A stretch of 62,760 bases of DNA from Coprothermobacterota bacterium (GCA_026389455.1 JAPLHV010000034.1:1-62760), one strand, 5' to 3'. Shown: positions 4,149 through 49,456, counted from the stretch's first letter. The notes: generated by a model not told the origin, from the sequence alone. Translations and numbers: made by a program.

Positions 4149-4242
4149 CCTGCGGCAACATTATAGCCTGCGGCAACATTATCGTTAATGGGGACAGATT
4201 TTAAATCTGTCCCCATTAACGGCGCTGCCGCAGGCTGTCTAG
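4149..4242. repeat. Composite: 18-bp tandem (x2), 39-bp perfect palindrome (4183-4221), inverted 18-bp motif
   Basis: cctgcggcaacattatag x2; cgttaatggggacagattt-t-aaatctgtccccattaacg; ctgccgcaggctgtctag. Confidence 0.9.
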
Positions 4243-4331
4243 CATTCTTTATTTCATCTTCACATTTCCTTACCCCGCCGTTCACACGAGTCCGCTTTAC
4301 TAAGGAAAATACAGAAAGGAAGCGTAAAAAG

Positions 4332-5516
4332 ATGAAAATACAAAGAACCGTGCTGTGGATCGTCCCGCTGCTGGCAGTCCTGGTACTTGCGGGCTGTGCT
4401 GGTCCCTTCTCGGAAACAATGGGGACAGATTTGAAATCTGTCCCCATTGTTTCGCGGCAACTGGCCACCAACACCAGCACCTCCCTGGCGGAGATCTTCT
4501 CCCCCTCTACAACCAGCGAACCGCAGGGGGTCAACGAGACCACTGAGGATGCCATCACCTTGGCGGTGGGGAAAGTGAACCCTGCTGTCGTCTTCATCGA
4601 CACCACTTACCAAACCGTCCAGCAGGACGATCGCTTCAACTTCCCCGGCTACTACGCCATTCCCCAGCAGCAACAGCCCCAAGAGGGGCAGGGCTCGGGG
4701 GTGATCGTGGACGGCGGGAATGGCTACCTCCTGACCAATAACCATGTGGTAAAGAATGCTGTCGCGATCAAAGTGACCCTCCCCGACGGCCGCACCTTCA
4801 CCGGCAGCGTGGTCGGCGCCGACTCACTTGCCGACATCGCTGTGGTCAAGATCGACGGCGCCAACCTGCCCGAAGCGAAACTGGCCGACAATGCCAATTT
4901 GAAAGTAGGCTCGTGGGCGATCGCCATCGGCAACCCATACGGCTTCGAGAATTCGGTCACGGTGGGGGTCGTCTCCGCCCTAAACCGGACCATCAGCGAC
5001 CCGGACAGCGGCAATCCCCTGATGGACCTAATCCAAACCGACGCTGCCATCAACCCCGGCAACTCCGGGGGCGCCTTGGTCAACATCAACGGTGAGGTGA
5101 TCGGAATTAATACAGCCATCATCGAATCGGCCCAAGGGATCGGTTTCGCCGTGAACATCGACGCCGCCAGCCGCTCTTTCCAAGACATCGTCGCGCACGG
5201 GAAAGTAACCCGAGCATGGATGGGGATCACCTTCGCTGGAGTGACCGAGGAGATCGCCAAGCAATTGAACCTGACCCAGGCTTCCGGCGCTTTGGTCGGC
5301 AGCGTCTCGGTTGGCGGTCCTGCGGCGAAGGCTGGCCTCTTGGCCGATGACGTCATCCAGGCAGCGGACGGAACCCCCATCATCAAGGCCGAGGAGTTGA
5401 GTCAGTTGATCCTCTCCAAGCAAGCCGGCGACGCGCTCACCCTCACCGTCTGGCGCAATGGCCAGACCCTCAGCCTGACGGTGACCCTGGGAGAGATGCC
5501 CAGCCAGATTCAGTAG
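4332..5516 (+). CDS. htrA: HtrA/DegP-family serine protease with one PDZ domain, predicted lipoprotein
   Basis: Lipobox VLAGC, TNNHVV, DIAVVKI, GNSGGAL and a C-terminal PDZ. The start was moved from 4188 to the ATG that begins the signal peptide. Confidence 0.9.
   Translation: MKIQRTVLWIVPLLAVLVLAGCAGPFSETMGTDLKSVPIVSRQLATNTSTSLAEIFSPSTTSEPQGVNETTEDAITLAVGKVNPAVVFIDTTYQTVQQDDRFNFPGYYAIPQQQQPQEGQGSGVIVDGGNGYLLTNNHVVKNAVAIKVTLPDGRTFTGSVVGADSLADIAVVKIDGANLPEAKLADNANLKVGSWAIAIGNPYGFENSVTVGVVSALNRTISDPDSGNPLMDLIQTDAAINPGNSGGALVNINGEVIGINTAIIESAQGIGFAVNIDAASRSFQDIVAHGKVTRAWMGITFAGVTEEIAKQLNLTQASGALVGSVSVGGPAAKAGLLADDVIQAADGTPIIKAEELSQLILSKQAGDALTLTVWRNGQTLSLTVTLGEMPSQIQ
4413..4453. repeat. 41-bp perfect palindrome inside htrA (encodes ETMGTDLKSVPIVS)
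   Basis: gaaacaatggggacagattt-g-aaatctgtccccattgtttc. Confidence 0.9.
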
Positions 5517-5567
5517 GAAAAGACGCCCTGCCGGGGGCTATCATCCTCTCCTTCTACCCTCCTATTT

Positions 5568-5608
5568 CAACCATGGGCTGCCTACGGCAGCCCATGGTTG
5601 TTTCGTTT
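5568..5608 (+). terminator. Rho-independent terminator after htrA
   Basis: 15-bp perfect stem caaccatgggctgcc/ggcagcccatggttg followed by tttcgttt. Confidence 0.75.
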
Positions 5609-5659
5609 GAATCCTTTCGTTTCGTTTTCCAGAGGAGCCAGCCTATTTTGTCAGTTTCC

Positions 5660-5684
5660 GTAGGGGCAGGTTTCAAACCTGCCC
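5660..5684 (+). repeat. GTAG-type REP
   Basis: gtaggggcaggtttcaaacctgccc; identical copy at 31658. Confidence 0.85.
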
Positions 5685-5757
5685 ATATCATCGTTTCGTT
5701 TTCCAGGGGACAACGTGTATATTGAGAGAGCAAAGCGTGAAGAAGGAGGATGCAGCC

Positions 5758-6720
5758 ATGTTGAAGCCAAGACGCTTGCGTCTAGGAGATACGGTCGGGT
5801 TGGTGTCCCCCTCCAGCGGCCCCTGGAAGCGCAGCGAGCTTTGGAGGGGGATCGCCGCGTTGGAGTCGTGGGGGTTTCAGGTGAAGGTGGGGGCGCATGC
5901 TTATGACCGCCACTACGACTATGCGGGCCTCGACGCGGACCGCGCCGCGGACCTGCTCTGGGCTTTCGATCACCCCGGGATCGACGCCGTCTTCTGCAGC
6001 CAGGGGGGGATTGGGGCGGCCCGCCTGCCCCGCCTGCTGGACTTTGACGTGATCCGGGGAAATCCGAAAATCTTCCTTGGCTACAGCGACATCACCGCGC
6101 TGCACCTGGCCATCGGCCGGGAAGCTGATTTGGTGACCTTTCATGGCCCCAGTTTGGCGGGCTTTGATCCGGAATCGATGACGGCCTACAAGAAGGACCT
6201 CCTCCTGCGCGCGCTCACCGGCGATGAGCCGTTGGGGGAGATTAAAATGGCCGATCCCGACAAGTACCTGCTGAAGATCAATGCCGGACGGGTCCAGGGG
6301 TCCCTCGTGGGGGGGAACTTGACGCTGGTTTGCGCCTCCCTGGGAACACCTTGGGAAATCCGCACGGAAGGCTGTATCCTTTTCCTGGAAGAATTAGAGA
6401 CCGAGCCCTGGCAAATGGACCATCTACTCACTCACTTGTTGAACGCGGGAAAGCTAGAGGCCGCCCGGGGCATCCTCATCGGCGAATGCCTGGACTGCGA
6501 GCCTCGCAAGCTGGATCCCGGATCTTTCAACCAACGAAGCCTGGAGGACATCCTCTTCGAGTTGCTGGAGCCGCTGGGGCGCCCGGTCCTCTATGGGCTC
6601 CCTCTGGGCCACACCAAAGACCGCGCGACCTTGCCTTTAGGGGTCGCCGCTACCTTAGACACGGCGGAAGGGTTCTTCCGCATCGATGAAGTCGCGACGA
6701 TAAACGGAAAGGAGAAATGA
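5758..6720 (+). CDS. S66 peptidase (LD-carboxypeptidase/MccF family)
   Basis: GDTVGLVSPSS, QGGIG, GYSDIT nucleophile elbow, GGNLT, FLEE, GHT; GGAGG SD before ATG 5758. Confidence 0.9.
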   Translation: MLKPRRLRLGDTVGLVSPSSGPWKRSELWRGIAALESWGFQVKVGAHAYDRHYDYAGLDADRAADLLWAFDHPGIDAVFCSQGGIGAARLPRLLDFDVIRGNPKIFLGYSDITALHLAIGREADLVTFHGPSLAGFDPESMTAYKKDLLLRALTGDEPLGEIKMADPDKYLLKINAGRVQGSLVGGNLTLVCASLGTPWEIRTEGCILFLEELETEPWQMDHLLTHLLNAGKLEAARGILIGECLDCEPRKLDPGSFNQRSLEDILFELLEPLGRPVLYGLPLGHTKDRATLPLGVAATLDTAEGFFRIDEVATINGKEK

Positions 6721-8918
6721 TGACGCGCGCACTGTGGAAACAAGCAATGGTCTGGTTGTTGGCGCTGGCCCTGATCGGCGGAGGGCTGGGATTGGTTCCC
6801 GGGCAGGCTGTGGCGGAACCGCGATACCTGACCATCGGCACGACCGAGGATCTGGACAGCCTGAACCCCTTCGTAGCTTACGAACGCGCTTCCTTTGAGG
6901 CCTTCCTGCTGATCTACGATTCGCTAGTCTCTTTTGACCGCAATCTGGAACCGCAGGCGTCTTTGGCCCAGAGCTGGGAAAGAAGCGCTGACGACCTGAC
7001 CTGGACCTTCCATTTGCGGTCGGGAGTGAAATGGCACGATGGACAACCTTTCACCTCTCGAGATGTCAAGTTCACATATAACCTGATCCTAGAAACCGGC
7101 CTGGGCTTGAATGCCGAGTTTCTCCGGGGGATCGAGTCGGTGGAGGCTAAAGATGAATTGACCGTGGTCATCAAGACCAGCGAGCCGAAGGCGAACATGC
7201 TCCTGAACCCCACCCCCATCCTACCCGAGCATCTCTGGAAAGACGTGCCCTCCACTGAGTTGGAGATGTACGCCAACGATAACCCAGTGGGCACGGGTCC
7301 ATTCAAGTTCGGTGAATGGAAAAAATCCGAGCGCCTGCGCCTGGATGCCAACCAAGAGTACTTCCGCGGTCCTCCCCGCATGGACGGCGTCTTCTTCTTG
7401 ATCTATGCCAATCGCGACACGATGGCCCAGTCTCTTCTGGTGGGGGAGATCGATGTCGCCCTGAATCTTTTTCCCAGCCAGTTGAAGGGGTTGCAGGGAG
7501 ATCCTGGGATCTGGCTGCACGGCTTCGAGGAAAACGGCTTCACTGAATTGGCTTTCAACTGCTGGACCGACCCCAGCTCCAAGGGGAACCCAGTTTTGCT
7601 GGACAAACGCGTGCGCCAAGCCCTGGAGTGGGCCATCGACAAGCAGGAGATCATTGCCCTCGCCCTGGAAGGAGAAGGCAACCCTGGGACGACCTTGATC
7701 CCGCCGACCGATCCCTTCTGGCATTACCAGCCCACGCCGGGGGAACTGCGTTCGTATGACCCCGCCAAGGCCAATGCCTTGCTGGATGCCGCCGGCTGCA
7801 AAGACATCAATGGCGACAAGATGCGCGAGGATCCATCCGGCAATCCCTTGAAGCTGCGCTTTCTTCTCCGCTCGGAGAACACCCAGGAAGTGAAGGCCGG
7901 GCAAATGATCAAGAGTTACCTGCAGAAGGTCGGCTTGGACACAGAGCTGGAAACGGTGGACGATGGGGCTCTCAATGACCGCATCTTCCAGGGCGCCGAC
8001 TTCGACATGTTCATCTGGGGTTGGGGCGGCGACGTGGATCCCAGCACCCTCTTGAACATATTGACCAGCGGCCAGATCGGTACCAACAACGACTGCTACT
8101 ACGGCAACCCTATCTTCGACGCGCTGGTGGTCAAGCAAGCCACCCTGATCGACCCCAGCTCTCGGCAAGACGCGGTGTGGGAAGCCCAAAGAATCCTCTA
8201 CGAGGACCTTCCCTACTGCATTCTTTGCTACGACACCTCCATCCAGGCGGTGCGCAAGGACAAGGTGGAGGGGATCGTCCCGGTGATCGGCGATGGAGCG
8301 CTTTTCTACGCCAACACGGCCGAGAACTACCTTAGCGCCGCCCCAGCCGGGAGTACTCCTTCGCCGACGCCCACCCCCAGCTCCACCCCTACTGCCTTGG
8401 TTTTCCCTGACCTGGCCGGCCATTGGGCTGCCCCAGCGGTAACCAAGCTGGTCAGCTTGGGCCTGGTCAAAGGATTCCCGGATGGCAGCTTCCGGCCCGA
8501 TGCGCCGATCACCCGGGCCGAGCTGGTGACCATGCTGGTGCGCGCCAAAACCTTGCCGGCCTCTCCAATAGCGGCTGCCTTCAGCGACGCGAATGGCCAT
8601 TGGGCTGCAGCCTCGATCGCTGCCGCAGTCCAAGCCGGGGTCGTCACCGGCTATCCGGATGGAACCTTCCAACCGGACCGCCCAGTTACGCGCGCGGAGG
8701 AAGCGGCCATGATCGTGCGACTGGAGGGCGCCGCAGGCGGGACGCCGGAAGTGCCTTCCTTCGCCGATGTCCCCCTTGAATACTGGGGATTTGGATCCAT
8801 CGAGACCGCCAAGACGATGGGTCTCATCACCGGGTATCCGGATGGGACCTTCCACCCGGATCAAACCAGCACGCGGGGCGAAGCCTGTTCCATGGTCAGC
8901 CGTCTGCCCGGCCTCTAG
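6717..8918 (+). CDS. Family-5 (Opp/Dpp) peptide-binding protein fused to three C-terminal SLH domains
   Basis: Signal peptide, LRSGVKWHDG and GTGPF; PT linker followed by three F.D..GHWA...G..G.PDG.F.PD...TR repeats. Confidence 0.9.
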   Translation: MMTRALWKQAMVWLLALALIGGGLGLVPGQAVAEPRYLTIGTTEDLDSLNPFVAYERASFEAFLLIYDSLVSFDRNLEPQASLAQSWERSADDLTWTFHLRSGVKWHDGQPFTSRDVKFTYNLILETGLGLNAEFLRGIESVEAKDELTVVIKTSEPKANMLLNPTPILPEHLWKDVPSTELEMYANDNPVGTGPFKFGEWKKSERLRLDANQEYFRGPPRMDGVFFLIYANRDTMAQSLLVGEIDVALNLFPSQLKGLQGDPGIWLHGFEENGFTELAFNCWTDPSSKGNPVLLDKRVRQALEWAIDKQEIIALALEGEGNPGTTLIPPTDPFWHYQPTPGELRSYDPAKANALLDAAGCKDINGDKMREDPSGNPLKLRFLLRSENTQEVKAGQMIKSYLQKVGLDTELETVDDGALNDRIFQGADFDMFIWGWGGDVDPSTLLNILTSGQIGTNNDCYYGNPIFDALVVKQATLIDPSSRQDAVWEAQRILYEDLPYCILCYDTSIQAVRKDKVEGIVPVIGDGALFYANTAENYLSAAPAGSTPSPTPTPSSTPTALVFPDLAGHWAAPAVTKLVSLGLVKGFPDGSFRPDAPITRAELVTMLVRAKTLPASPIAAAFSDANGHWAAASIAAAVQAGVVTGYPDGTFQPDRPVTRAEEAAMIVRLEGAAGGTPEVPSFADVPLEYWGFGSIETAKTMGLITGYPDGTFHPDQTSTRGEACSMVSRLPGL

Positions 8919-8965
8919 CCGAACGCCTGCCTAAAGGGAGGCAAGATCATCATGCTTCGCTCAGG

Positions 8966-9934: not shown

Positions 9935-9937
9935 GGA

Positions 9938-10888
9938 ATGGTACACCTTCACTTCCCTTCCATTCGATCAAAGCAGCGCGGGGACAGATTGAAATCTGTC
10001 CCCGGAATCTGTCTCCCGGGTGCGAGGGCAAGGCAACGGAAAGGGTGGCGAGAAAACTGGTCCCTCTTCCGAGCCAACCGGATGGGGATGGCCGGGTTGA
10101 TTCTCTTCCTCTTCTTCGTCTTGGTGGCGATCTTCGGACCCATCCTCTGGCCCTACGATCCATTGGAGTTCGGCTCCCCGGCCGATGTCCTGCAACCGCC
10201 CAGCGCAGCGCACTGGCTGGGGACCGACGACATGGGCCGGGACGTCCTGCTGGGATTGATCGCCGGGAGCCGCGTCTCGTTGATGGTGGGGATCCTGGCC
10301 ACCGTCGTCTCAATGTCGGTGGGCGCCTTTGTCGGTTTGACGGCAGGCTACCTGGGAAAGGGAACGGATGCCGTCCTGATGCGCTTCACCGATGTCTTCC
10401 TGGTGCTTCCCTGGCTTCCCTTGATGCTGATCCTGGCCGCTCTGCTGGGGGCCAGTCTGTGGAACATCATCCTGGTGATCGGCCTGACCGGATGGGCCGG
10501 CACGGCCCGCCTGGTTCGCGCCCAGGCCTTGGCGGTGAAGGAGCGGCCTTTCGTGGAGCGGGCTCGCGCCCTGGGCTCCTCCCGCTGGGGAATCATGGGT
10601 CGCCACGTGCTGCCCAACGTTTTCCCGCTGATCTTCGCCAACACCATCCTTATTGTAGCTGTCTCGATCCTCTCCGAGACCACCCTCAGTTTCCTGGGAA
10701 TGGGCGACAGCACCCGCCCCAGTTGGGGGATGATGCTGCACTTTGCCTTCGCCTCGGGCGCCATCTCCAACGGCGCTTATTGGTTCCTGGTCCCTCCCGG
10801 GCTGTGCGTCCTGCTGGTGGTGTTGGCTTTCACTTTCATGGGGTACGCGCTGGATGAGATTCTCAACCCCAAGCTGAGGAAGCGCTGA
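9938..10888 (+). CDS. Opp/Dpp ABC permease (OppC-like)
   Basis: HWLGTDDMGRD, FVERARALG, PSWG. Confidence 0.9.
   Translation: MVHLHFPSIRSKQRGDRLKSVPGICLPGARARQRKGWRENWSLFRANRMGMAGLILFLFFVLVAIFGPILWPYDPLEFGSPADVLQPPSAAHWLGTDDMGRDVLLGLIAGSRVSLMVGILATVVSMSVGAFVGLTAGYLGKGTDAVLMRFTDVFLVLPWLPLMLILAALLGASLWNIILVIGLTGWAGTARLVRAQALAVKERPFVERARALGSSRWGIMGRHVLPNVFPLIFANTILIVAVSILSETTLSFLGMGDSTRPSWGMMLHFAFASGAISNGAYWFLVPPGLCVLLVVLAFTFMGYALDEILNPKLRKR
9979..10017. repeat. GGGGACAGATT palindrome plus an extra half-site in the oppC 5' region
   Basis: cggggacagatt-ga-aatctgtccccg followed by gaatctgtctccc. Confidence 0.8.
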
Positions 10889-10889
10889 G

Positions 10890-20442: not shown

Positions 20443-21494
20443 GCAGCGCAATGACACCTTTACAGCGTGTCTTGACCGCTCTCGGCCACCAGGAAGCGGA
20501 CCGTGTGCCCTTTTTCCTGTTCCTCAGTCTGCATGGCGCAAGAGAACTGGGGATGCCCTTGCGTCAGTATTTCTCACGGGGAGAGAACGTGGCAGAAGCG
20601 CAGTTGCGCATGCAAAACCGTTACGGACACGATTGTCTGGACGGATTTTTCTATGCTCCGGCCGAGATCGAGGCCTGGGGAGGGGAAGTGGTTTGGTTCG
20701 AGGACGGGCCACCCAACTCGGCGACCCCCTTCCTCTCTGACGTAAGAGCTATCGCCGGCTTGAAACCTCCGCGCGTGGAAGAGACGCCCGTCCTGGTCGA
20801 AGCGCTGAAAGCCATCTCCTTGATGAAAGAACAGTCGTCTCTTATCCCAATCCTTGGGGTAGCGATTTCGCCCTTCTCCCTGCCGGTCATGCAAATGGGC
20901 TTCGAGGCTTACCTGCAGTTGATCCTTGAGCAGCCCGAGGCATTCTGGCAGTTGATGCGCGTCAACGAGGAGTGGTGCGTGTCTTGGGCAAACGCCCAGC
21001 TCTCCGCCGGCGCCACGGCCATCGCCTATTTCGACCCGGTCTCATCGCCGACTGTGATCCCGCCGGATCTGTACCGAAAAACCGGCTTCCTGGTCGCCTG
21101 CCGCACCCTGCCGCGGATCCTCGGACCCACCGTTACTCATCTGGCCTCGGGACGGGCCCTTCCCATCCTGGATGACCTGGCCGCAACAGGGACGGCTGGA
21201 GTGGGGGTAAGCGCGCTGGAGGATCTGGCCGAATTGAAACGGGTTGCTTCCGGAAAACTGGCTCTCCTGGGGAACTTGAACGGGATCCAGATGCGCCACT
21301 GGACGGCGGCTGACGCTGAGCGCGAGGTGAAGCAAGCCATCGCCAAGGCGGGGAAGGGGGGCGGCTTCATCCTGGCGGACAACCACGGGGAGATCCCTTG
21401 GCAGGTTAGCGAGGGAACGCTCTCCGCCATCGCCGATACCGTTCGACGATGGGGTCATTACCCCCTGGATTGGATCGATGAGTCCCTCACCTAA
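20439..21494 (+). CDS. Uroporphyrinogen decarboxylase/MtaA-CmuA fold protein
   Basis: ERV...DRVP-type N-terminus, AEIEAWG, YFDPVSS, LLGNLNG, GGGFIL. Confidence 0.85.
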   Translation: MSSAMTPLQRVLTALGHQEADRVPFFLFLSLHGARELGMPLRQYFSRGENVAEAQLRMQNRYGHDCLDGFFYAPAEIEAWGGEVVWFEDGPPNSATPFLSDVRAIAGLKPPRVEETPVLVEALKAISLMKEQSSLIPILGVAISPFSLPVMQMGFEAYLQLILEQPEAFWQLMRVNEEWCVSWANAQLSAGATAIAYFDPVSSPTVIPPDLYRKTGFLVACRTLPRILGPTVTHLASGRALPILDDLAATGTAGVGVSALEDLAELKRVASGKLALLGNLNGIQMRHWTAADAEREVKQAIAKAGKGGGFILADNHGEIPWQVSEGTLSAIADTVRRWGHYPLDWIDESLT

Positions 21495-23451
21495 GCTCTG
21501 CCTGGTCTTCTGCCGTAATCTAGCTCCGGAGGTGAAGGCTGTCCTGGCCGATGGCGCCTTCCCCGACGTAGAGATGGCCACCTTCCCGGCCCGCTGCACT
21601 GGACGCATGAGGAAAGAAGCGCTGGAGCTGTTCTTCAAAGAGCTATCCACACGCTATGACCGGTTGGAGATATTCGGTGGACCTTGTCTGACCATACAAG
21701 AACAGACTTGTCGCCAGATCGGGAATTGCGCCTTGCACATCTTTCAGCCATGCTGCCATCCGCTCTTGGAGCAAAACCACTTGGAAGAGTTTCTTCGAGA
21801 AGGGGCTTACCTGCTGACTCCCGGATGGATTCTGCACTGGCGCGAATACCTGGAGGAGTGGGGCTTCGACCAGGCTACAGCACGATCCTTCTTCGGCGAA
21901 TTCTGCCGTACGCTCCTGCTTCTGGATACCAACGTCTGGCCGCAAGCAGCAGAACAGCTCCAACAACTGGGCGAATATCTGGACTTGCCTACCAAACGAG
22001 TGTCCTTGGGTTTGGATTTCTTTCGTCTTTTCATCTCCCGGATCGTGCTAGAATGGCGCATGGAAAAAGAAAATCGCAGCTCAAAGGATTCGCTGAGCCA
22101 AGACCCCTCCGGCGACCCCGGGCGGCAATCGGCGGAGTACGGGATGGCCTTGGATCTGTTGGGCCGGCTAACCAAGACCGTAGACGAGGAAAGCGTTATC
22201 GAGGGGATCTTGGAGCTCTTCACCCTGCTCTTCGCTCCGGCTCGATTGACCTATCTCCCCATCCAGGAGGGAAAAGCGGGAACGGCGATCAGTCGCCCAC
22301 CTGTCGAGGAGTCGGAGTTCCCCACTTTGATGGCCTTCCATCGTTCCGGAGAAGAATACGCCTGGAACGAGGAGAGGGACGGCTTCCACTTGAGGATGGG
22401 GGAGGCGGGGACAATCGGCGTTCTGGAAGCAGCCCGTTTTGCTTTCCCCCAAATGGGTGATCGCTATCTGAACCTTGCGCTGCTAGTAGCCCGCGTCTCC
22501 AGCCTGGCCATCGCCAACGCCCGCGCCTTCCGCCGGCTGGAGGAAGCCAAGGAGAGCCTCAGTCGCACCACCGCCCAATTGGAGGGAATCTTCCAGGCGA
22601 TGCCGGATCTCTTCTTCCTGCTGGAAGCGGATGGAACCATTCGCGATTGGAAGGCAGGATCCCAGACGGAGCTGGGGAAGCCGGAGGCGTTCCTCCCCGC
22701 GGAAAGCCTTCTGGGGAACAAGCTGCAGCATCTCCTCCCGCTCCAATTTCGAGCAGCCTGCTTGAACTCTCTCCAGCAGGCCTCCACCAGGGAAGAAGTG
22801 ACAGCCTTCGAGTTTTCCCTCTTGCAGGCTCAGGACGAGCGTTCTTTTGAGGCTCGCATGGCGCCAATGGCAGGAGGCTTGGTGATCTGCTGCATCGTCC
22901 GCGATATCACGGAACGGAAGCGGATGGAAGAGAAGATCTTGACCCTCTCCATCACCGACGAGTTGACGGGGCTGCTCAACCGTCGCGGTTTCCTGACCAT
23001 GGCTACCCAGCAACTGAAGATCGCCAAACGGACGAAAAACCGTCTCTGGTTGATCTTCGCCGACTTGGACGAGTTGAAGTGGATCAATGACCACTTGGGG
23101 CATGAAGCGGGTGACCGGGCGATCCAGCAGATCAGCATCCTCCTGAAAGAGACTTACCGGGAAGCGGATATCTTCGCCCGCATCGGAGGGGATGAGTTCG
23201 TCGTGCTGGCCACCGAGATCTCGCCGGCAAGTGCGGCTAACCTGGTCAGCCGTTTTGCAGGGAGCGTGCGCCAATGGAACAAGCAAAGTGAGGAACCCTT
23301 CACCCTCGACCTCAGCTTGGGGGTTTCCCTCTTCAACCCCGCTTTTCCGGTGAGCCTGGATGAGCTGATGCGCCAAGCCGACGATGGCATGTACCAGCAA
23401 AAACGCCTCAAGAAAGCGGTAAAAGAACGCTTGGAAAAAACAGAAGGGTAG
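21478..23451 (+). CDS. Diguanylate cyclase: DUF1638-like N-terminus, GAF-like, PAS and GGDEF domains
   Basis: YLLTPGW...WGFD...LLLLDT segment; DELTGLLNRRG, DLDELKWIND, GHEAGD, RxxD I-site (READ), GGDEF. Confidence 0.88.
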   Translation: MSPSPKLCLVFCRNLAPEVKAVLADGAFPDVEMATFPARCTGRMRKEALELFFKELSTRYDRLEIFGGPCLTIQEQTCRQIGNCALHIFQPCCHPLLEQNHLEEFLREGAYLLTPGWILHWREYLEEWGFDQATARSFFGEFCRTLLLLDTNVWPQAAEQLQQLGEYLDLPTKRVSLGLDFFRLFISRIVLEWRMEKENRSSKDSLSQDPSGDPGRQSAEYGMALDLLGRLTKTVDEESVIEGILELFTLLFAPARLTYLPIQEGKAGTAISRPPVEESEFPTLMAFHRSGEEYAWNEERDGFHLRMGEAGTIGVLEAARFAFPQMGDRYLNLALLVARVSSLAIANARAFRRLEEAKESLSRTTAQLEGIFQAMPDLFFLLEADGTIRDWKAGSQTELGKPEAFLPAESLLGNKLQHLLPLQFRAACLNSLQQASTREEVTAFEFSLLQAQDERSFEARMAPMAGGLVICCIVRDITERKRMEEKILTLSITDELTGLLNRRGFLTMATQQLKIAKRTKNRLWLIFADLDELKWINDHLGHEAGDRAIQQISILLKETYREADIFARIGGDEFVVLATEISPASAANLVSRFAGSVRQWNKQSEEPFTLDLSLGVSLFNPAFPVSLDELMRQADDGMYQQKRLKKAVKERLEKTEG

Positions 23452-23492
23452 GGGTTTGGGGACAGATTTTAAATCTGTCCCCAAACCCCTAC
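23448..23492. repeat. 45-bp perfect palindrome (GTAG termini enclosing the GGGGACAGATTT core)
   Basis: gtaggggtttggggacagattt-t-aaatctgtccccaaacccctac; contains the DGC stop codon. Confidence 0.92.
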
Positions 23493-27156: not shown

Positions 27157-27174
27157 GGGAGAAACCAGCTTCTG

Positions 27175-27260
27175 GGGACAGATTTCCGGACCGTTAATGG
27201 CGCTGTTATTGGGGACAGATTTTAAATCTGTCCCCAATAACAATGCTGCCGCAGACTATC
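27175..27260. repeat. Composite: half-site, 39-bp perfect palindrome (27204-27242), 18-bp motif
   Basis: ggggacagatttc...; tgttattggggacagattt-t-aaatctgtccccaataaca; gctgccgcagactatc. Confidence 0.88.
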
Positions 27261-27267
27261 AATTAAG

Positions 27268-29682
27268 ATGCCGCAGATCTCCGCGCTGATTCAACATCTA
27301 CGTGACACACTGGGCAAGCAAGGTCAACTGACCTACCTTGAGGCGACGGCAAGTCATTCGGCTCAATATGGTGAGCTGGAGAAACCGGTAGCTCCCCTTC
27401 TCCAAGAGCTTCTCTCTCGAAAGGGACTGCGCCTTTACAGTCACCAGGCAGAGGCGATCAATCCGGCTCGTCGCGGGGAGGATGTTATCCTTACCAGCCC
27501 CACCGCCTCAGGGAAGAGCTTGGCCTTCAACATCCCGGTATGGGATCGGTTGCTGACTCAACCCTTCTCTACCGCTCTCTACATCTACCCACTGAAGGCG
27601 CTGGCCAACGACCAGTTGAAGACGCTCCTGGCGTGGGATCAAGAGTTGGGAGCGAACCTCCACCCGGCCATCTATGACGGCGACACTCCAGCCGGCGCCA
27701 AGCGGCAGATCCTGGAGCGCTCGCGGCTGATCCTGACCAACCCCTACGCTCTGCATGAGTATGCCCCCTGGCACCATCTCTGGCGGCGTTTCTTCCTTAA
27801 CCTGCGTTATGTGGTCATCGACGAAGCCCACACCTACCGCGGCATCTTTGGCTCACACATCGCCTGCCTATTGCGCCGCCTGCAGCGGATCTTCGCTTAT
27901 TACCACGCTCGACCCACTTTTATCCTCTCCTCGGCCACCCTTCGCAACGCCGCTCAATTCGCCGGAACATTGATAGGTCGCCCCGTCTGCGCAGTCACCG
28001 AAGACGGCTCACCGCATGGCCCACGCCTCTTCCTGCTCTGGAACCCAGGATTCACCCCCGAGTCCGACCGGAGGTCCATGGATCGCACAAACAGCGATTC
28101 ACAGAGGATCCCGCAAACCACAAAGGAAGGAAAACGTCGCTCCCCTCACCTGGAAGTGCGAGATCTTGTGGTGGAGCTGGTACGATTCGGCTTGCAGACG
28201 ATTTGCTTCTCCTCTTCGCGAGCCATCGCCGAGCTATTGGCGCGCTGGACCCGTGAGCAACTGGCAAAGGAGGATCCCGATCTGGCCGGCCGCGTGGCAG
28301 CCTACCGCGCCGGCTACCTGGCGGAAGACCGGCGCCGCTTGGAGACGCAGTTGCGGAAGGGGGAACTGCGCGCTGTCTTTTCCACCAACGCCTTGGAGTT
28401 GGGGATCGATATCGGCTCACTGGACGCGGTGGTGATAGCTGGCTACCCGGGCGCCATGATCTCTGTGCGGCAACAAGCCGGACGCGCAGGACGCGGCTTG
28501 GAGGAATCCCTGACGGTGATGGTGGCTTTCCCGAACCCGCTCGATCAGTATTTCATCCAGCACCCAGACGCCTTCTTCAGCCGCCCTTTGGAAGAGGCGC
28601 TGCTGAACCCCGCCAACCCGCACATCCTGCGCGGACACTTGCAAGCGGCCGGCGCTGAACTTCCCTGGCGTGACGCAGAGGAAGCGAAGGCAGTCTTCGG
28701 AACTCCCGCTTCGGCTGTCTACAAGGAGCTGGAGAATGAAGGGTTTCTAGCCGGCGGCCGTTACCGCGGCCCAGCCGAGAGAGCCTCGGCAATCGTCTCT
28801 CTAGAGAATATCGGCGAGCAATCAATACAGTTGCTGCGGATCTCTTCCGCCCTTGGAGTAGGAACCTCCGAGCGCCTACCCTCGCGCGAAGGGAAAGGAA
28901 GGGAAACGGTCGTAGGGGCGACGGATGCGTCGCCCCTACTGGAGACAATGGATCTGCCCAGGGCGATGCGCGAAGCCTACCCGGGAGCCATCTTCCTCCA
29001 CCAGGGAGAGACCTTCCGGGTGGAATCGCTGGACCTGAAAGCGGGGATCGCCCGCGCCCGGCCGGTGGATGTGGACATGTACACCTCAACGCGCAAGGAC
29101 AGCGATATTCGCCTCCTGGAGGAATATGCCCGCCGCCGAACAGCGGAGGGCATCGAGGTCGCCCTCGGCGAGGTAGAAGTCACCGAACGCATCCTTGGTT
29201 TCTTCATCAAGCGCTTTGACCAGGTCTTGGATTACCGCGACCTGGACTTGCCCCCTCTCTCCACCGTCGCTCAGTCGGCCTGGTTCCGCGTCCCGACTTC
29301 GCTACGAACTCGCTTGCTGGAAGCCGGGGAGGATTTCGACGGCGCCCTCCACGCCTTGGAGCACGCCACTATCGCACTGGTTCCCCTCTTCGCCCTCTGC
29401 GATCGCTGGGATCTGGGGGGTGTCTCCTACCCGGAGCGCTCCGCCATGGGCGGCCCGGTGATCTTCCTTCACGAGGGAGCGCCTGGAGGGGTGGGGATCG
29501 CCGAGAAGATTTACCAAGTATTGCCGGAGTTGCTGCAGGCTGCGCTGGAGATGATTCGCTCCTGCTCCTGCCGGGATGGGTGCCCTTCCTGCGTCCTCTC
29601 CCCGAAATGCGGCAACAACAACCAGCCGATGAGCAAGGCGGGGGCGATCCTCCTCTTGGAGGGGCTCTTGGGCGGGAAATGA
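27268..29682 (+). CDS. DEAH-box helicase with DUF1998 Zn domain (MrfA/SftH/Hrq1-like)
   Basis: PTASGKS, DEAH, TNALELGIDIG, QQAGRAGR, CSCRDGCPSC. Confidence 0.93.
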   Translation: MPQISALIQHLRDTLGKQGQLTYLEATASHSAQYGELEKPVAPLLQELLSRKGLRLYSHQAEAINPARRGEDVILTSPTASGKSLAFNIPVWDRLLTQPFSTALYIYPLKALANDQLKTLLAWDQELGANLHPAIYDGDTPAGAKRQILERSRLILTNPYALHEYAPWHHLWRRFFLNLRYVVIDEAHTYRGIFGSHIACLLRRLQRIFAYYHARPTFILSSATLRNAAQFAGTLIGRPVCAVTEDGSPHGPRLFLLWNPGFTPESDRRSMDRTNSDSQRIPQTTKEGKRRSPHLEVRDLVVELVRFGLQTICFSSSRAIAELLARWTREQLAKEDPDLAGRVAAYRAGYLAEDRRRLETQLRKGELRAVFSTNALELGIDIGSLDAVVIAGYPGAMISVRQQAGRAGRGLEESLTVMVAFPNPLDQYFIQHPDAFFSRPLEEALLNPANPHILRGHLQAAGAELPWRDAEEAKAVFGTPASAVYKELENEGFLAGGRYRGPAERASAIVSLENIGEQSIQLLRISSALGVGTSERLPSREGKGRETVVGATDASPLLETMDLPRAMREAYPGAIFLHQGETFRVESLDLKAGIARARPVDVDMYTSTRKDSDIRLLEEYARRRTAEGIEVALGEVEVTERILGFFIKRFDQVLDYRDLDLPPLSTVAQSAWFRVPTSLRTRLLEAGEDFDGALHALEHATIALVPLFALCDRWDLGGVSYPERSAMGGPVIFLHEGAPGGVGIAEKIYQVLPELLQAALEMIRSCSCRDGCPSCVLSPKCGNNNQPMSKAGAILLLEGLLGGK
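28912..28939. repeat. GTAG REP palindrome in-frame inside the helicase gene
   Basis: gtaggggcgacg-gatg-cgtcgcccctac (VGATDASPL). Confidence 0.88.
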
Positions 29683-40611: not shown

Positions 40612-40612
40612 G

Positions 40613-45204: not shown

Positions 45205-45205
45205 G

Positions 45206-45233
45206 GGGATCGGGGATAGTGGATAGGGGATAG
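45206..45233. repeat. Heptamer tandem repeat (STRR-like)
   Basis: ggggatc ggggata gtggata ggggata. Confidence 0.65.
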
Positions 45234-45368
45234 GCTGCTCATCCATGCACTTCGCTCGAGGTCAGGTTTTTGAGGACAAGTGCAGGTAGCCGATAGATGC
45301 CGTGTATACTACAATACTTGTGGATTTTAGATTGCTGATTGGATCGCTTGAAAAGCAAAATGGCTTGC

Positions 45369-45464
45369 GTAGGGGCGGGTTTCAAACCCGCCCCCTGCAT
45401 AGCTTGCGGCAGCACAGCTAGACAGCCTGCGGCAGCACGAGCTAGACAGCCTGCGGCAGCACGA
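45369..45464. repeat. Composite: GTAG REP (45369-45394) plus 24-bp tandem of the 18-bp motif family (45417-45464)
   Basis: gtaggggcgggtttcaaacccgcccc; gctagacagcctgcggcagcacga x2. Confidence 0.88.
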
Positions 45465-45497
45465 AGTTAAGATCACACCATAGAGAGGGTATCCGGA

Positions 45498-47054
45498 ATG
45501 ACAGAACGCACCATGCAAGAGTTGGTTCGAGAGCTCGAGGACTGGAAGTCAGCCATCATCGATGCCCCTGGAGCTCGGGCCAAGAAACAGCACGAGAAAG
45601 GCAAGCTCACCGCCCGAGAGCGCATCGATATGCTCCTGGATCCGGACAGCTTCGTCGAGTTCGATGCTTTCATGGCCCACCGCTGCAGCAATTTCGGCAT
45701 GGAGAAGACAGAAATCCCCTCCGATGCCGTGGTCACCGGATACGGCGCAGTGGATGCGCGGCCGGTCTTCGTCTTCTCCCAGGACTTCACCCTTTCAGGC
45801 GGGTCTCTGGGTGAAGCGCACGCTCAAAAGATCGTCAAAATGCAGGAAATGGCCGTGAAGATAGGGGCGCCCATGATCGGCATTAACGACTCAGGCGGGG
45901 CGCGAATCCAGGAGGGTGTAGACTCCCTTCATGGTTACGGCATGATTTTCTTCCGCAACACGCGCGCTTCCGGGGTGATTCCCCAGATCTCGGTGATCCT
46001 CGGCCCCTGCGCCGGGGGAGCGGTTTACTCTCCGGCCATCACCGACTTCGTCTTCATGGTGGACAAGGTATCCAGCATGTACATTACCGGGCCGCAGGTG
46101 ATCAAGTCGGTCACCGGCGAGGATGTCGGCGTGGAGGAGTTGGGTGGCGCGATGGTACACAACTCCGTATCGGGTAACGGCCATTTCATCTACGACAGCG
46201 AGCAGGAGTGCTTCGCCGGCGTTCGCCGCTTGCTTTCCTTTCTCCCGGCCAACAACCTGGAGGATCCACCCGTGACCGAGACCGGCGACGACCCGGGACG
46301 CATCGACTTCGAGTTGCGCGACCTCGTCTCTACTAACACCAAGGTTCCCTACAATATCAAGGACGTCATCCTGCACCTGGTGGACAACCAGGATTTCCTG
46401 GAAGTGCATCAGTATTTTGCCCCCAACATCGTTGTCGGCTTTGGCCGCATCGGGGGTCAAACGATCGGAGTTATCGGCAACCAGCCGCTCGTCCTGGCCG
46501 GCTGTCTGGACATTAATGCCTCGGACAAAGCGTCCCGCTTCATCCGTTTTTGCGATGCCTTCAATGTGCCCTTGTTGACGCTGGTGGACTGTCCTGGTTA
46601 CCTCCCCGGCAAGACACAGGAACATGGCGGGATCATCCGTCACGGCGCCAAGCTGCTCTTCGCCTACGCCGAAGCCACCGTCCCCAAGCTGACCGTGACC
46701 TTGCGAAAATCCTACGGTGGCGCTTCAGTGGCCATGTGCAACAAGGATCTGGGCTGCGACCTGGCCATCGCTTGGCCGCAAGCGGAGATCGCTGTGATGG
46801 GCTCTGCCGGGGCTATCAATATCATCTTCCGCAAGGAGCTGGACGGCGCTGCCGACCCAGTCAAGCGGCACGAAGAGTTGACGGCCAACTACGAAAAGAT
46901 GTTCTCCAACCCCTACGAAGCAGCCAAACGCGGCTACATCGACGCAGTCGTGGTTCCCGAGGAGACACGCGGCCGCATTGCCTCCGCCCTGGCGCTGCTG
47001 CGCACCAAGCGGGAGGTTGTCCCCTCCAAGAAGCACGGCAACATCCCCCTCTAG
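45498..47054 (+). CDS. Acyl-CoA carboxyltransferase (MmdA/PccB/transcarboxylase 12S-like)
   Basis: GKLTARERI, DSGGARIQEG, GPCAGGAVY, KKHGNIPL. Confidence 0.94.
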   Translation: MTERTMQELVRELEDWKSAIIDAPGARAKKQHEKGKLTARERIDMLLDPDSFVEFDAFMAHRCSNFGMEKTEIPSDAVVTGYGAVDARPVFVFSQDFTLSGGSLGEAHAQKIVKMQEMAVKIGAPMIGINDSGGARIQEGVDSLHGYGMIFFRNTRASGVIPQISVILGPCAGGAVYSPAITDFVFMVDKVSSMYITGPQVIKSVTGEDVGVEELGGAMVHNSVSGNGHFIYDSEQECFAGVRRLLSFLPANNLEDPPVTETGDDPGRIDFELRDLVSTNTKVPYNIKDVILHLVDNQDFLEVHQYFAPNIVVGFGRIGGQTIGVIGNQPLVLAGCLDINASDKASRFIRFCDAFNVPLLTLVDCPGYLPGKTQEHGGIIRHGAKLLFAYAEATVPKLTVTLRKSYGGASVAMCNKDLGCDLAIAWPQAEIAVMGSAGAINIIFRKELDGAADPVKRHEELTANYEKMFSNPYEAAKRGYIDAVVVPEETRGRIASALALLRTKREVVPSKKHGNIPL

Positions 47055-47063
47055 GGGCGCGCC

Positions 47064-47255
47064 ATGGAGAGCAACGAGAGAATTCCCCAGGAAATTCAGG
47101 TGGTCATTGCTGCCGCCCTAGCCCGCTACCTGAAGGATGACAAGCTGGCCTTCAAAGTAGTTTCCATCAAGCTGGTGCAAACCTCCCAGATCAACCTTTG
47201 GGGATTGACGGGGCGCCAGGAGAACATGCTCGGGACACGCGGCCGCAGGTTATGA
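47064..47255 (+). CDS. Small soluble subunit resembling the C-terminal part of MmdD/OadG
   Basis: VIAAALARY...F.VVSIK...WGLTGRQENM; no TM helix. Confidence 0.7.
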   Translation: MESNERIPQEIQVVIAAALARYLKDDKLAFKVVSIKLVQTSQINLWGLTGRQENMLGTRGRRL

Positions 47256-47419
47256 TGTTGCCGCAGGTTAGCCAAAATAGCCCCCGGCAGCTTGATAGCC
47301 CCCGGCAGCTTGATAGCCCCCGGCAGCTTGATAGCCCCCGGCAGCTTGATAGCCCCCGGCAGCTTGATAGCCCCCGGCAGCTTGATAGCCCCCGGCAGGG
47401 TGTTCTGTCTAGCCGCAGG
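47242..47419. repeat. 18-bp tandem array (6 perfect units plus a partial) with anchor and flanking motif copies
   Basis: cttgatagcccccggcag at 47291-47398 preceded by a 14-nt partial unit; ends ggtgttctgtctagccgcagg; gccgcaggttatgatgtt duplication upstream. Confidence 0.95.
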
Positions 47420-47446
47420 TAGAAGGAAGCGAGGATAGGAAAAGCG

Positions 47447-47887
47447 ATGACCCGTAAGTACGTGATCAAGGTGAACAACAAGCCCTATGAAGTGGAGGTG
47501 ACGGAGGTGGGCCGCACGCCCAACGCCCCCCTCCCCCCTGCCCCGCTGCCCCCAGTCGTCGTCGCCTCCGCACTGCCTGCGCAAAGGGTGAGCATGCCGA
47601 TGCCGGGAGGCCCTCCGCCGCCCCCCACCAGCAAAACCCCAAGCGGATTGACAGCCCCCGGCAGGGCGTTCAGTGAAAAGGTCGTACAGGCGCCGATGAC
47701 CGGCACGATCATCAAAATCCTCTGCCGGGTCGGTCAGGAGGTCAACGAGGGGGACGTGATCCTCAAACTGGAAGCGATGAAGATGGAGACCGAAATGGCC
47801 GCCCCCTTCCCCGGCCGGGTGAAGGAGATACGCGTGGCCGAGCGCCAGAACGTCACCGCCGGCGACGCCCTGGTGGTCATGGAGTGA
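47447..47887 (+). CDS. Biotin carboxyl carrier protein
   Basis: YEVEV N-terminus, Pro-rich linker, EAMKM. Confidence 0.94.
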   Translation: MTRKYVIKVNNKPYEVEVTEVGRTPNAPLPPAPLPPVVVASALPAQRVSMPMPGGPPPPPTSKTPSGLTAPGRAFSEKVVQAPMTGTIIKILCRVGQEVNEGDVILKLEAMKMETEMAAPFPGRVKEIRVAERQNVTAGDALVVME

Positions 47888-47897
47888 GGAGGCCCCG

Positions 47898-49379
47898 ATG
47901 AACCGCACCAACAAACCGTTTGTACACATCACCGATACCGTCTACCGCGACGCCCACCAGTCGCTGATCGCCACCCGCATGCGCACCGAAGATATGGCGC
48001 CGATGATCGAGTACATGGATCAGATGGGTTACTGGTCCTTCGAGATGTGGGGAGGCGCCACCTTCGATTCCATGCTGCGTTTCCTCAACGAGAACCCCTG
48101 GGAACGCATCCGCATCTTCAAAAAGCATTGCCGGAACACTCGCCTGCAGATGCTTCTTCGCGGCCAAAACCTGGTTGGCTACAAGCATTACGCCGACGAC
48201 ATTCTGGAGCGCTTCATCCGCCACGCCGCCGACTTGGGGATCAATGTCTTCCGCGTCTTCGACGCCCTTAACGACATCCGCAACATGGAGAAGGCCATCC
48301 GCGTAGCCAAGTCCACCGGCGCCACCGTGCAGGGCTGCATGAGCTACACCCTCAGCCCGGTGCACTCCATCGACGGCTTTGTGGGATTGGCTAAGGAACT
48401 GAAACAGCTCGGTTGCGACATCATCACCATCAAGGACATGGCCGGCCTGATCTCCCCGGCGTCAGCCCTCGAGCTGGTTTCCAAGCTGAAAAAGCAGGTC
48501 GGGTTGCCCGTCTGTCTTCACTCCCACTGCACCACTGGGATGGCGCCTACCTCCTACTTCAAGGCTGCCGAGGCTGGAGTGGACATCCTCGACTGCGCCC
48601 TCTCGCCCTTCGGCTCCGGAACCTCACAGCCCCCGACCGAGACGATGGTGGAAATGCTGGAGAGCGCCGGCTTCTCGACCGGGGTGGATGCCGGCAAGTT
48701 TCTGGAAGCGGCAGAGTACTTCCAGGAGATCAAGGACTCCATCTACGCTTCCCTCATCACTCCGGTAGCCGAGCGAGTCGATGTCCGCGCCTTGATCTAC
48801 CAGGTGCCCGGTGGGATGCTGACCAACATGGTCTCTCAATTGGAGAAGCAAAACGCTTCGGACAAATTCAAGGCGGTGCTACAGGAGATCCCCAAGGTGC
48901 GAGCCGATTTGGGGTACGTTCCCCTGGTGACCCCCACTTCGCAGATCGTTGGCACCCAGGCCACTATGAACATCCTCTCCGGCGAGCGCTACAAGATTAT
49001 CATCCAGGAGGTCAAAGATCTCTGCAAGGGCCTCTATGGACGGACCCCCGCCCCCATCGACCCCGGATTGATCAAGAAAGCGATCGGCGATGCCGAGCGC
49101 ATCACCGACAGGCCGGCCAACCACATCCCGCCCGACTGGGAGAACTGCAAAGTAGGAATGGCCCCCTACTCCCAGGAGGAAGAGGATATCCTCACCTACG
49201 CCCTCTACCCCAGCGTGGCCAAGGAGTACTTCGAGGCCAAGGCCGACCCGATCAAGTGGAAAGCGCGAGAGGAATCCCTGCGGTTCGGCAAACCCCTCCC
49301 CGACGGCCACCCCCAGCGCCAGTTCATCCTGCGCATCAACGGGGAGGACTATGAGGTGGGGATCACCGAACAGGAATAG
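47898..49379 (+). CDS. Pyruvate/oxaloacetate carboxyltransferase (OadA/transcarboxylase 5S-like, no biotin domain)
   Basis: RDAHQSL, WGGATFD, IKDMAG, HSHCT, VPGGM, LVTPTSQ. Confidence 0.93.
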   Translation: MNRTNKPFVHITDTVYRDAHQSLIATRMRTEDMAPMIEYMDQMGYWSFEMWGGATFDSMLRFLNENPWERIRIFKKHCRNTRLQMLLRGQNLVGYKHYADDILERFIRHAADLGINVFRVFDALNDIRNMEKAIRVAKSTGATVQGCMSYTLSPVHSIDGFVGLAKELKQLGCDIITIKDMAGLISPASALELVSKLKKQVGLPVCLHSHCTTGMAPTSYFKAAEAGVDILDCALSPFGSGTSQPPTETMVEMLESAGFSTGVDAGKFLEAAEYFQEIKDSIYASLITPVAERVDVRALIYQVPGGMLTNMVSQLEKQNASDKFKAVLQEIPKVRADLGYVPLVTPTSQIVGTQATMNILSGERYKIIIQEVKDLCKGLYGRTPAPIDPGLIKKAIGDAERITDRPANHIPPDWENCKVGMAPYSQEEEDILTYALYPSVAKEYFEAKADPIKWKAREESLRFGKPLPDGHPQRQFILRINGEDYEVGITEQE

Positions 49380-49405
49380 GCAGCTCTTCTCTGGATCTGT
49401 AGGCT

Positions 49406-49456
49406 CTTTGGGGGCAGATTTAAATCTGTCCCCAAAGTTTTTGGAAATCTGTCCCC
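49406..49456. repeat. GGGGACAGATTT palindrome (one mismatch) plus an extra half-site
   Basis: ctttgggggcagattt-aaatctgtccccaaag ... ggaaatctgtcccc. Confidence 0.85.

Follow-up and report, generated by a model that had tools for sequence, protein, structure and literature searches.

Palindromes in the window

The window analyzed here, a stretch of 62,760 nucleotides from Coprothermobacterota bacterium (GCA_026389455.1, JAPLHV010000034.1:1-62760), is contig C88 of a 2.63-Mb assembly in 263 contigs (genome G000). It contains perfect and near-perfect palindromes in which two copies of the half-site GGGGACAGATTT stand head to head, forming a dimer of 25 nt, between outer arms that vary by copy yet remain paired. 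With at most one mismatch allowed, the window contains 15 matches to the half-site, where shuffled sequence would give 0.34. The genome has 515 half-site matches, of which 200 are ends of the TIRtron type described below and 182 make up 91 dimers (a census allowing one mismatch per half-site), with a further 22 in pairs separated by loops of 4 to 90 nt and 40 preceded by AT, solitary or arrayed. All four perfect palindromes listed in the initial annotation were found, with lengths of 39, 41, 45 and 39 bp, as were both near-perfect copies and three of the half-sites, one of these with a mismatch (Table 1). The fourth supposed half-site, placed at 58741, turned out to be AAGGACAGATTT at 58740-58751, the end of a decayed transposase gene remnant.

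Table 1. Copies and remnants of the repeat in the window (TIR, terminal inverted repeat; ORF, open reading frame).
Position	Strand	Feature
3977..3988	+	solitary half-site GGGGGCAGATTT, one mismatch
4183..4221		perfect 39-bp palindrome, CGTTAAT + 25-nt TIR dimer + ATTAACG; intergenic
4413..4453		perfect 41-bp palindrome, GAAACAAT + dimer + ATTGTTTC
9979..10004		near-perfect dimer, single mismatch in a 24-nt core, pairing continued by 1 base; lies between two ORFs
23448..23492		perfect 45-bp palindrome, GTAGGGGTTT + dimer + AAACCCCTAC; overlaps stop of ORF 21478-23451
27174..27185	+	GGGGACAGATTT half-site standing alone, upstream of the palindrome at 27204; shared with G001
27191..27203	+	older left arm CCGTTAAT, displaced, plus GGCGC
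27204..27242		perfect 39-bp palindrome, TGTTATT + dimer + AATAACA; arms rewritten
49406..49437		near-perfect dimer GGGGGCAGATTTAAATCTGTCCCC, one core mismatch, arms of 4 nt (CTTT/AAAG); ORFs on either side converge
49445..49456	-	additional half-site, 7 nt downstream of the palindrome at 49406 (12 nt beyond the core)
58740..58863	-	TIRtron 3'-end remnant, TIR AAGGACAGATTT(ATTT) + last 37 TIRYT codons (ending ..MEKKSKRRVESRGLGRPRKVEK and stop)

As single-stranded DNA the four perfect palindromes gave folding energies of −18.6 to −24.3 kcal/mol (z ~ −10). Several copies recur in three congeners: Coprothermobacterota bacterium LacPavin_0920_SED2_MAG_58_15 (G001), 'bacterium' ELA551 (G002) and binchicken_co18_491 (G003). 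The palindrome at 4183 is common to G001 and G003, where its central base differs (an A/T flip in G001), and the dimer at 9979 is also present in G003. The palindrome at 4413, also found in G002 and G003, lies in frame (..ETMGTDLKSVPIVS..) close to the N-terminus of a lipoprotein-like ORF whose end is at 5516. The extra half-site at 49445 is oriented like the right half of the 49406 dimer, and the same succession of dimer, spacer and half-site is repeated across the genome. Mechanical ORF calling starts an ORF (4188-5516) at the in-frame ATG provided by the ATGGGG of the 4183 dimer; its true start is likely the ATG at 4333.

The surroundings of these copies hold further repeats. Between 3990 and 4140 lie AT-rich AAGTGG/CCACTTA heptamer-like units in an imperfect long inverted repeat (..aagtggtttagtagtttaataactacttagccactt..), and G001 and G003 have comparable ccacttagactact arrays at their orthologues of C60. 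Repeats of 18 to 21 nt of the CTGCCGCAGGCT type stand beside several dimers (in the window at 4040-4240 and 27243-27290), and a composite, CGTTAAT-dimer-ATTAACGGCGCTGCCGCAG, is common to the dimer at 4190 and to the ancestral form of that at 27211.

The parent TIRtron and its transposase

A RAYT/TnpA(REP) gene flanked by the repeat, which the initial annotation had suggested looking for, lies at C153:2615-3374, where an intact unit is enclosed by inverted AAAGGGGACAGATTTATTT ends. The gene itself (C153:2669-3361) encodes a protein of 231 aa, with the stop codon falling within the right TIR. The protein scored 86.2 bits (cut-off 80) with the NCBIfam model NF047646, 'REP-associated tyrosine transposase' (RAYT; REP, repetitive extragenic palindrome), and matched Pfam Y1_Tnp with E=2.5e-12. 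The stretches MTNHVHLII, SLWEGRF and RYVELNPVRA carry the class-2 Y1 HUH motifs NHVH, WE and YVELNP; the core domain ends near residue 141, leaving 90 C-terminal residues, and the total length compares with ~238 aa for subclass 2.1, whose members have an HTH-like C-terminal extension. The TIR, GGGGACAG, fits the TIRtron consensus GGGGWSAS exactly. Di Nocera et al. (2013) introduced the terms TIRtrons for RAYT-like genes lying between inverted repeats GGGGWSAS and TIRYTs for the encoded proteins, and observed that families of moderate abundance, made up of single, dimeric and grouped repeats, can arise from the TIRs (PMC3733652). Quentin et al. (2018) placed most TIRYTs in TnpA-Y1 subclass 2.1, characterized by NHVH, W[EQ], YIELNP and a length of ~238 aa, and no REP-like repeats were reported for this subclass (PMC6006769). 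Judged from its sequence, GGGGACAGATTT is therefore assigned as the TIR of a ~760-bp TIRtron encoding a RAYT-like Y1 (HUH) transposase, a TIRYT of TnpA-Y1 subclass 2.1. An IS200/IS605 element was rejected, since the protein reached only 22 bits with NF033573 (IS200-type TnpA, cut-off 55), the tyrosine motif is Y..ELNP and not Y...Q, and the ends are TIRs. Integron attC, dif/Xer, serine-invertase hix-like sites, protelomerase targets, tRNA fragments and DNA uptake sequences had also been considered and were dropped once the Y1 gene was found between the repeats.

The 200 TIRtron-type half-sites have the form AAA-GGGGACAGATTT-ATTT and occur in inverted pairs 43 to 1569 bp apart. They delimit, besides the intact unit, 62 shorter ones (43-1569 bp), many of which contain RAYT gene fragments; the pieces kept correspond to residues 22-101, 128-199 and 206-231. 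By their content, these shorter units are best described as internal-deletion derivatives, to which the remnant at 58740-58863 of the window also belongs, and the 25-bp palindrome as the end point of the series, in which two TIRs stand head to head and the interior is gone. Such minimal derivatives would presumably be moved in trans by TIRYT acting on single-stranded DNA.

The repeat is widely scattered among bacteria. The exact 29-mer ATGGGGACAGATTTNAAATCTGTCCCCAT was found, among the matches listed, in metagenome-assembled genomes (MAGs) labelled Nitrospirota, Syntrophales, Desulfobacterium, Gammaproteobacteria, Aerophobetes, Kiritimatiellae, Planctomycetota, Anaerolinea, Acetobacteraceae and others. 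TIRYTs 53 to 64% identical to the C153 protein lie between identical 12-mers in Aerophobetes, Nitrospirae and a gammaproteobacterium. Both TIRtron ends are AAAGGGGACAGATTTATTT in G000, G001, Aerophobetes and Nitrospirae, and the ends in Gammaproteobacteria are GGGGACAGATTTATTT, without the AAA prefix. A homologue of 34% identity has covaried ends, GGGGTCAGACTT/AAGTCTGACCCC. Such constancy of the core next to a diverging protein is what a recognition sequence would show. In a set of 41 genomes from the window's phylum, close TIRYT sequences were confined to the window's genus, and exact dimers (62, 41, 14 and 33 copies) to that genus as well, apart from a single copy in a neighboring genus. Because in-phylum copies are limited to one genus and the closest homologues are found in other phyla, the distribution indicates that the TIRtron was gained horizontally.

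Outer arms at occupied and empty sites

In the 91 dimers, perfect pairing reached a median of 7 nt past the 12-nt core (range 0 to 18), and 65 of them (71%) were paired over at least 5 nt, for which the chance expectation is ~0.1%. The variation from copy to copy noted in the initial annotation thus holds throughout the genome. Arm positions −1/−2 are AT in ~85% of the arms and a weak base preference is seen at −3/−4. Beyond −4 the information content is ~0; pairing nonetheless stands at 77 to 88% at −5 and −6. The few fixed arm subfamilies that would have pointed to ordinary REPs were not seen among these copies: only 9 pairs of copies have at least 7 arm bases in common (1.9 expected), several of them in larger duplicated units. 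At the center, 0 or 1 base is unpaired. The core stem itself carries 43 one-sided mismatches against 5 compensated ones. Pairing resumed for at least 4 nt after an arm mismatch in 2 of 90 copies, where ~10 would be expected from the core mismatch rate (a rough estimate). Dimers often lie in frame inside genes and in both orientations, adding 7 to 17 residues per gene (..MGTDLKSVPI.. or ..GDRFQICPH..), with net gains in multiples of three.

The origin of the arms was approached by comparing sites between species. For the orthologue search, the excised flanks of 63 sites were concatenated into a 14.5-kb query and compared with the three congeners; all genomes compared are fragmented MAGs, and ~10 events were legible with confidence. 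Most intergenic sites were too diverged or rearranged for polarizing (k=23, 29, 62, 22 and 53). One empty allele is on L027 of G003, which reads ..ACGCAG|GCAGGTC..; in C238 the site has grown by 36 nt to ..ACGCAG-CAT[25]ATG-CTGCG-GCAGGTC.., and the right arm so created, CTGC(G), reproduces the ancestral left flank in inverted form. At C114:5152, compared with G001, 33 nt were gained (CACTAT[25]AT, empty allele GGTTGG|CCTGG), and the arm is no longer than AT. In a HemN/HemW-like gene (C239:1004), 28 nt present in G001 and in five family-level genomes are replaced by a 49-nt palindrome in the window's genome, G002 and G003, for a net gain of 21 nt, and a NuoN-like gene (C32:8812) shows a net gain of 27 nt. 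At none of these four sites was the empty allele palindromic, and no direct target-site duplication was found at the occupied sites that have an empty allele, including the clean pairs L027/C238 and C114:5152; a MITE (a miniature transposable element with inverted repeats) moved by a DDE-type cut-and-paste transposase was rejected because such a duplication is lacking. Dimers are thus present or absent at otherwise conserved sites without target-site duplication. Other sites were less informative: at the GlgA site at least 11 extra bases were inserted and the net +48 could not be decomposed, an EamA loop was too variable for comparison, and the copy in a VIT protein is common to all four members of the genus. 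In G002 (L122) the central 12 nt of the dimer at C35:11402 of G000 are deleted (GAGGGA-CTGTCTCC), which is the usual central-deletion instability of palindromes.

These alleles bear directly on the idea that the dimers insert into the center of pre-existing palindromes, that is, into hairpin loops of single-stranded DNA, so that the arms would be host target. The nesting of the 23448 copy within GTAGGGGTTT...AAACCCCTAC would fit such targeting, as would a second small palindrome family that inserts into dimer centers and the REP dimers within longer consensus palindromes reported by Di Nocera et al. The idea is nevertheless contradicted by the non-palindromic empty alleles at all four sites; moreover, arms at one site are unlike between species, and the GTAGGGGTTT..AAACCCCTAC target is absent elsewhere in the genome. 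We regard it as highly improbable.

Arms were also found to differ between species at sites that are occupied in both. At window position 27204, CCGTTAAT adjoins the core in G001 and pairs with ATTAACGG, whereas in G000 ~12 nt (GGCGC+TGTTATT), the inverse of the right flank, stand between CCGTTAAT and the core. At C224:19644, compared with G003, a 7-nt block of the right flank was exchanged at equal length, by which the arms grew from 3 to 10 nt, and at C165:2639 the flank that supplied the arms is the opposite of that used in the G001 orthologue. The GlgA site (C92:6593) carries three perfect pairs of arms in three species, CATCAT/ATGATG, CATTAT/ATAATG and CATTTT/AAAATG, which include an A:T to T:A change, a transversion. 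Over 23 orthologue comparisons (184 arm position pairs, 4 to 9% divergence) double changes that compensate each other numbered 7 and internal one-sided changes 0, where by our own arithmetic ~0.3 and ~26 would be expected. The central base differed in 12 of the 23 (7 complement flips, 4 other substitutions and 1 change of length or register) and was the same in 11. Within the assembled sequences, these comparisons show that the outer arms are neither borne by subfamilies nor pre-existing targets, being written in place and later rewritten. The initial annotation had proposed that one flank is copied onto the other at insertion; the L027 allele bears out the copying, with one arm host-derived, but the process is not confined to insertion, as orthologous arms were rewritten afterward.

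If the arms belonged instead to the element, as in ordinary REP or MITE subfamilies whose long stems are inherited from donors, copies should share them. To a degree they do, through the AT at −1/−2 and the weak preference at −3/−4, through the excess of arm-sharing pairs, and through neighbors with common arms (C114:4433/5152, C239:1004/1943, C224, C46 and the window copy 4421 with C203:2985). Beyond −4, however, information is ~0 and pairing is still near 80%, most arms are unique, the local ancestral flank was the arm source at L027, at window 27204 and at C165 in G001, and arms change at fixed orthologous sites. Donor inheritance therefore accounts for the AT, weakly for −3/−4, and for some neighboring copies, not for the bulk of the arm bases, and as a general explanation it is unlikely. 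The copying of host flank proposed in the initial annotation does not in turn extend to all arm bases, some (the AT, weakly −3/−4, and those at C114 and C239) being derived from the element or from a neighbor.

Selection on the hairpin, the other possibility raised in the initial annotation, was weighed next to a second hairpin family of the same genome. In this account the hairpin is functional, as an RNA terminator or stabilizer or a protein-bound DNA cruciform, and ordinary compensatory substitutions maintain pairing. The 7 compensated changes between orthologues, all transitions, agree with it, as do the mild enrichment of G:T/T:G where pairing first fails (24 of 90, with ~15 expected) and the position of several window copies just past stop codons. 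It sits poorly, however, with changes that arise as blocks (a 7-nt replacement and inverted additions of 12 and of 3 to 5 nt), with the compensated transversion A:T to T:A, with 43 uncorrected core mismatches beside perfect outer arms, with copies in both orientations and within coding regions, with an arbitrary extension length of 0 to 18 nt, and with dimers that are mostly bare in other phyla. The second family, the GTAG REPs TCGTAG-GGGCGGGTTT-N-AAACCCGCCC-ACGCAC, has a central C/G and fixed, asymmetric flanks; 102 of its 127 genome copies pair for 1 extra base only. Twelve copies have at least 4 extra paired bases, mostly through a GTAG/TAGG (or GCAGG) foot repeated on the other side. In the TIRtron-type units with distant TIRs, pairing extends over at most 5 bases, all within an A-run. 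Since neither the GTAG REPs nor the distant-TIR units are extended, a stable hairpin alone is insufficient. Selection on the hairpin is improbable; the data agree far better with copying, whether by template switching or fold-back. In the initial annotation, the 23448 copy had been linked to the REP family through its GTAG...CTAC termini. These arms occur once in the genome, the true GTAG REPs are a separate family without extension, and the palindromes belong with TIRYTs and TIRtrons rather than with GTAG-tagged REPs.

GTAG REPs in the window start at 5665, 31663, 45374 and 58962. In the genome, ~9% of them are of a 'double-foot' type, mostly GTAGG/TAGG...CCTAC and some GCAGG...CCTGC. RAYT paralogues of 32 to 34% identity are encoded on C101, C25 and C112 and may be the enzymes of this family.

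A last alternative is that fold-back at a solitary half-site makes dimer and arms together, X-AT-core giving X-AT-core-N-core'-AT-X'. The 40 AT-prefixed solitary or arrayed half-sites could serve as starting points, some dimers (C203:2893-3010, C46, C32) follow arrays of [spacer + ATGGGGACAGATT] and have an arm identical to the final spacer, and the 0 to 1 unpaired base at the center would be as expected. Against this, no orthologous pair of half-site and dimer was found among the site comparisons with three congeners, the clean empty alleles lack any half-site, and bare dimers (n=0) are common in other phyla. This origin, too, is improbable as the general one, although it may apply to the arrays.

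Tandem arrays of a 10 to 21-nt spacer plus ATGGGGACAGATT, or their mirror image, precede dimers at C203:2893-3010, C46:28153-28250, C32:2794-2840 and C216:17335-17420; the number of units varies between congeners (two fewer at C203 in G001), and a tRNA gene immediately precedes the C216 array. A third small palindromic repeat, (T)CCGGATTGACCGGAGGTC, with tandem variants, lies exactly central in GGGGACAGATTT dimers at C26:236-278, C147:988-1030 and C212:6292-6334 of G000. At C128:3844-3937 a repeat of this type forms an insertion of ~47 nt, where G003 (L003:3141) has a plain dimer.

Writing of the arms

We therefore favor, with a probability of roughly 0.6, the reading that the palindromes are minimal TIRtron derivatives whose arms were written by hairpin-templated copying of host flank. 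The core would fold, and the 3' end at the base of the hairpin would be extended with the other arm and its flank as template, by an intrastrand template switch or by snap-back synthesis. Either an inverted copy of one flank would be added or the opposite flank overwritten, and the same synthesis would correct arm mismatches in one step and invert the unpaired center. The retention of core mismatches next to perfect outer arms would follow from synthesis proceeding outward from the base of the stem, and, together with the net additions, suggests a starting point at the folded core's foot. Template switching is known to homogenize or expand the arms of inverted repeats in one step, to invert spacers and to produce multi-nucleotide changes at constant length (PMC8604942, PMC13100816, PMC8794818). 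The arm homogenization and expansion, the spacer inversion and the equal-length block changes seen here thus correspond, as far as sequences can tell, to the known signature of intrastrand template switching. The candidate triggers are ordinary replication that stalls at the hairpin and TIRYT itself, through a nick or a covalent complex. In E. coli, quasipalindrome template switching is stimulated by covalent DNA-protein complexes (PMC6357072), and the covalent 5'-phosphotyrosine intermediate of TIRYT would resemble such DNA-protein crosslinks.

Several observations weigh against flank copying or restrict it. The left arm GCACTAT at C114:5152 equals the arm of a copy 700 bp away (C114:4433), and both 9-nt arms at the HemW site are non-ancestral and resemble those of a copy 940 bp away (C239:1943). 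All 7 compensated changes in the 23 comparisons are transitions, which RNA-level selection via G:U also predicts. In some copies (C224:21267, C16:7194) uncorrected mismatches are older than the species split. Few events could be polarized, given intergenic divergence and fragmented MAGs, and the evidence consists of assembled genomes only. Finally, in an unbiased sample from the Gamma genome G045 and the Delta genome G054, 14 of 17 dimers had at most 2 extra paired bases although G045 has a TIRYT, so the element alone is insufficient for arm extension. Arm extension is thus lineage-dependent, common in the genus and rare in the two other phyla sampled. That arms are present in all phyla had been considered and was rejected, because the 29-mer pattern had required AT...AT and the unbiased sample was mostly bare. 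The lineage factor may be TIRYT activity or host exonucleases.

A more specific version of hairpin-templated copying, in which TIRYT itself acts as a 'palindrome writer', is doubtful but conceivable. The enzyme would nick the foot, the paired 3'-OH would be extended along the opposite flank, and the enzyme would reseal, with the hairpin tip flipped, in a manner likened to parvoviral rolling-hairpin terminal resolution by an HUH nickase. If this were true, it may account for the origin of REP-type repeats and of 'double-foot' REPs, and lineages would differ through the activity of the enzyme or through host 3' exonucleases.

By published account, the way in which REP-type repeats spread and change is not yet clear (PMC8266576). 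The present family offers a 25-bp minimal substrate for which an enzyme could be assigned from sequence, with a core conserved base for base across phyla, and dozens of natural 'before and after' sites as a record of hairpin-templated synthesis in bacteria, with a built-in control in the other REP family of the same genome, which lacks arm writing. Perfect compensatory change in a stem need not mean structural selection, which bears on covariation-based RNA discovery. Insertions such as those in GlgA, the HemN/HemW-like radical-SAM enzyme and the NuoN-like subunit are a source of protein indels, and also of gene-calling errors (ATGGGG false starts) and MAG fragmentation.

Comparison with known systems

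By every sequence feature compared, the family falls among the TIRtrons and TIRYTs. It shares with them a Y1 HUH protein of ~230 to 240 aa with NHVH, W[EQ] and Y..ELNP, encoded between GGGGWSAS inverted repeats, the dispersal of TIRs as single, dimeric or grouped repeats, and a patchy distribution across phyla. Unlike the published TIRtrons, it has a minimal 25-bp dimer present in 14 to 62 exact copies per genome of the genus, often in frame within genes, and ~70% of the copies have copy-specific, perfectly paired extensions that change in concert. REP/REPIN-RAYT systems, reportedly described by Nunvar (2010), Bertels and Rainey (2011) and Ton-Hoang (2012), resemble it in the Y1 transposase gene flanked by cognate short palindromic repeats that are dispersed in the genome. 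In contrast to these, there is no GT[AG]G foot, the foot being AT in ~85% of arms, the repeat is a TIR and not a self-folding REP, and the stems are site-specific. RAYTs are single-copy and vertical, whereas here one intact TIRYT is accompanied by ~60 decayed or deleted derivatives and the identical core is shared between phyla, so that inheritance was not vertical only.

Among other short repeats, Rickettsia palindromic elements (RPEs) and intragenic REPs are similar in that short palindromic repeats lie in frame in genes. RPEs are 100-150 bp long and of fixed sequence, and for the CGTC-type RPEs we know of no associated transposase. The small dispersed repeats (SDRs) of Nostocaceae, attributed to Elhai et al. 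(2008), are said to be mobile, 21 to 27 nt long, some of them palindromic, and mutually nested; to our knowledge no transposase has been assigned to them, unlike the present family, for which parent element and enzyme are identified. The REP dimers in longer palindromes reported by Di Nocera et al. are consensus sequences and not site-specific.

Quasipalindrome correction and short-range template switching, known from the work of Ripley, the Lovett laboratory (PMC7202029, PMC6357072) and Monttinen and Löytynoja (PMC8794818), share with the changes described here arms made identical in one step or expanded into the flank, inverted spacers and multi-nucleotide changes of equal length. Unlike classical quasipalindrome switching, the changes are repeated on ~90 copies of one mobile hairpin while another hairpin family of the same genome is spared, they include net additions, and a dedicated HUH enzyme putatively nicking near the hairpin may trigger them. 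A literature text search with the repeat sequence itself gave chance primer matches only, no description of copy-specific concerted arm extensions was found in Di Nocera et al. or Quentin et al. (PMC3733652, PMC6006769), and the combination of a 25-bp TIR dimer identical between phyla, frequent in-frame residence and host-written concerted stems was not found in the literature searched. The palindromes thus belong to a known kind of element, and the writing of their arms is an undescribed, lineage-dependent behavior of it.

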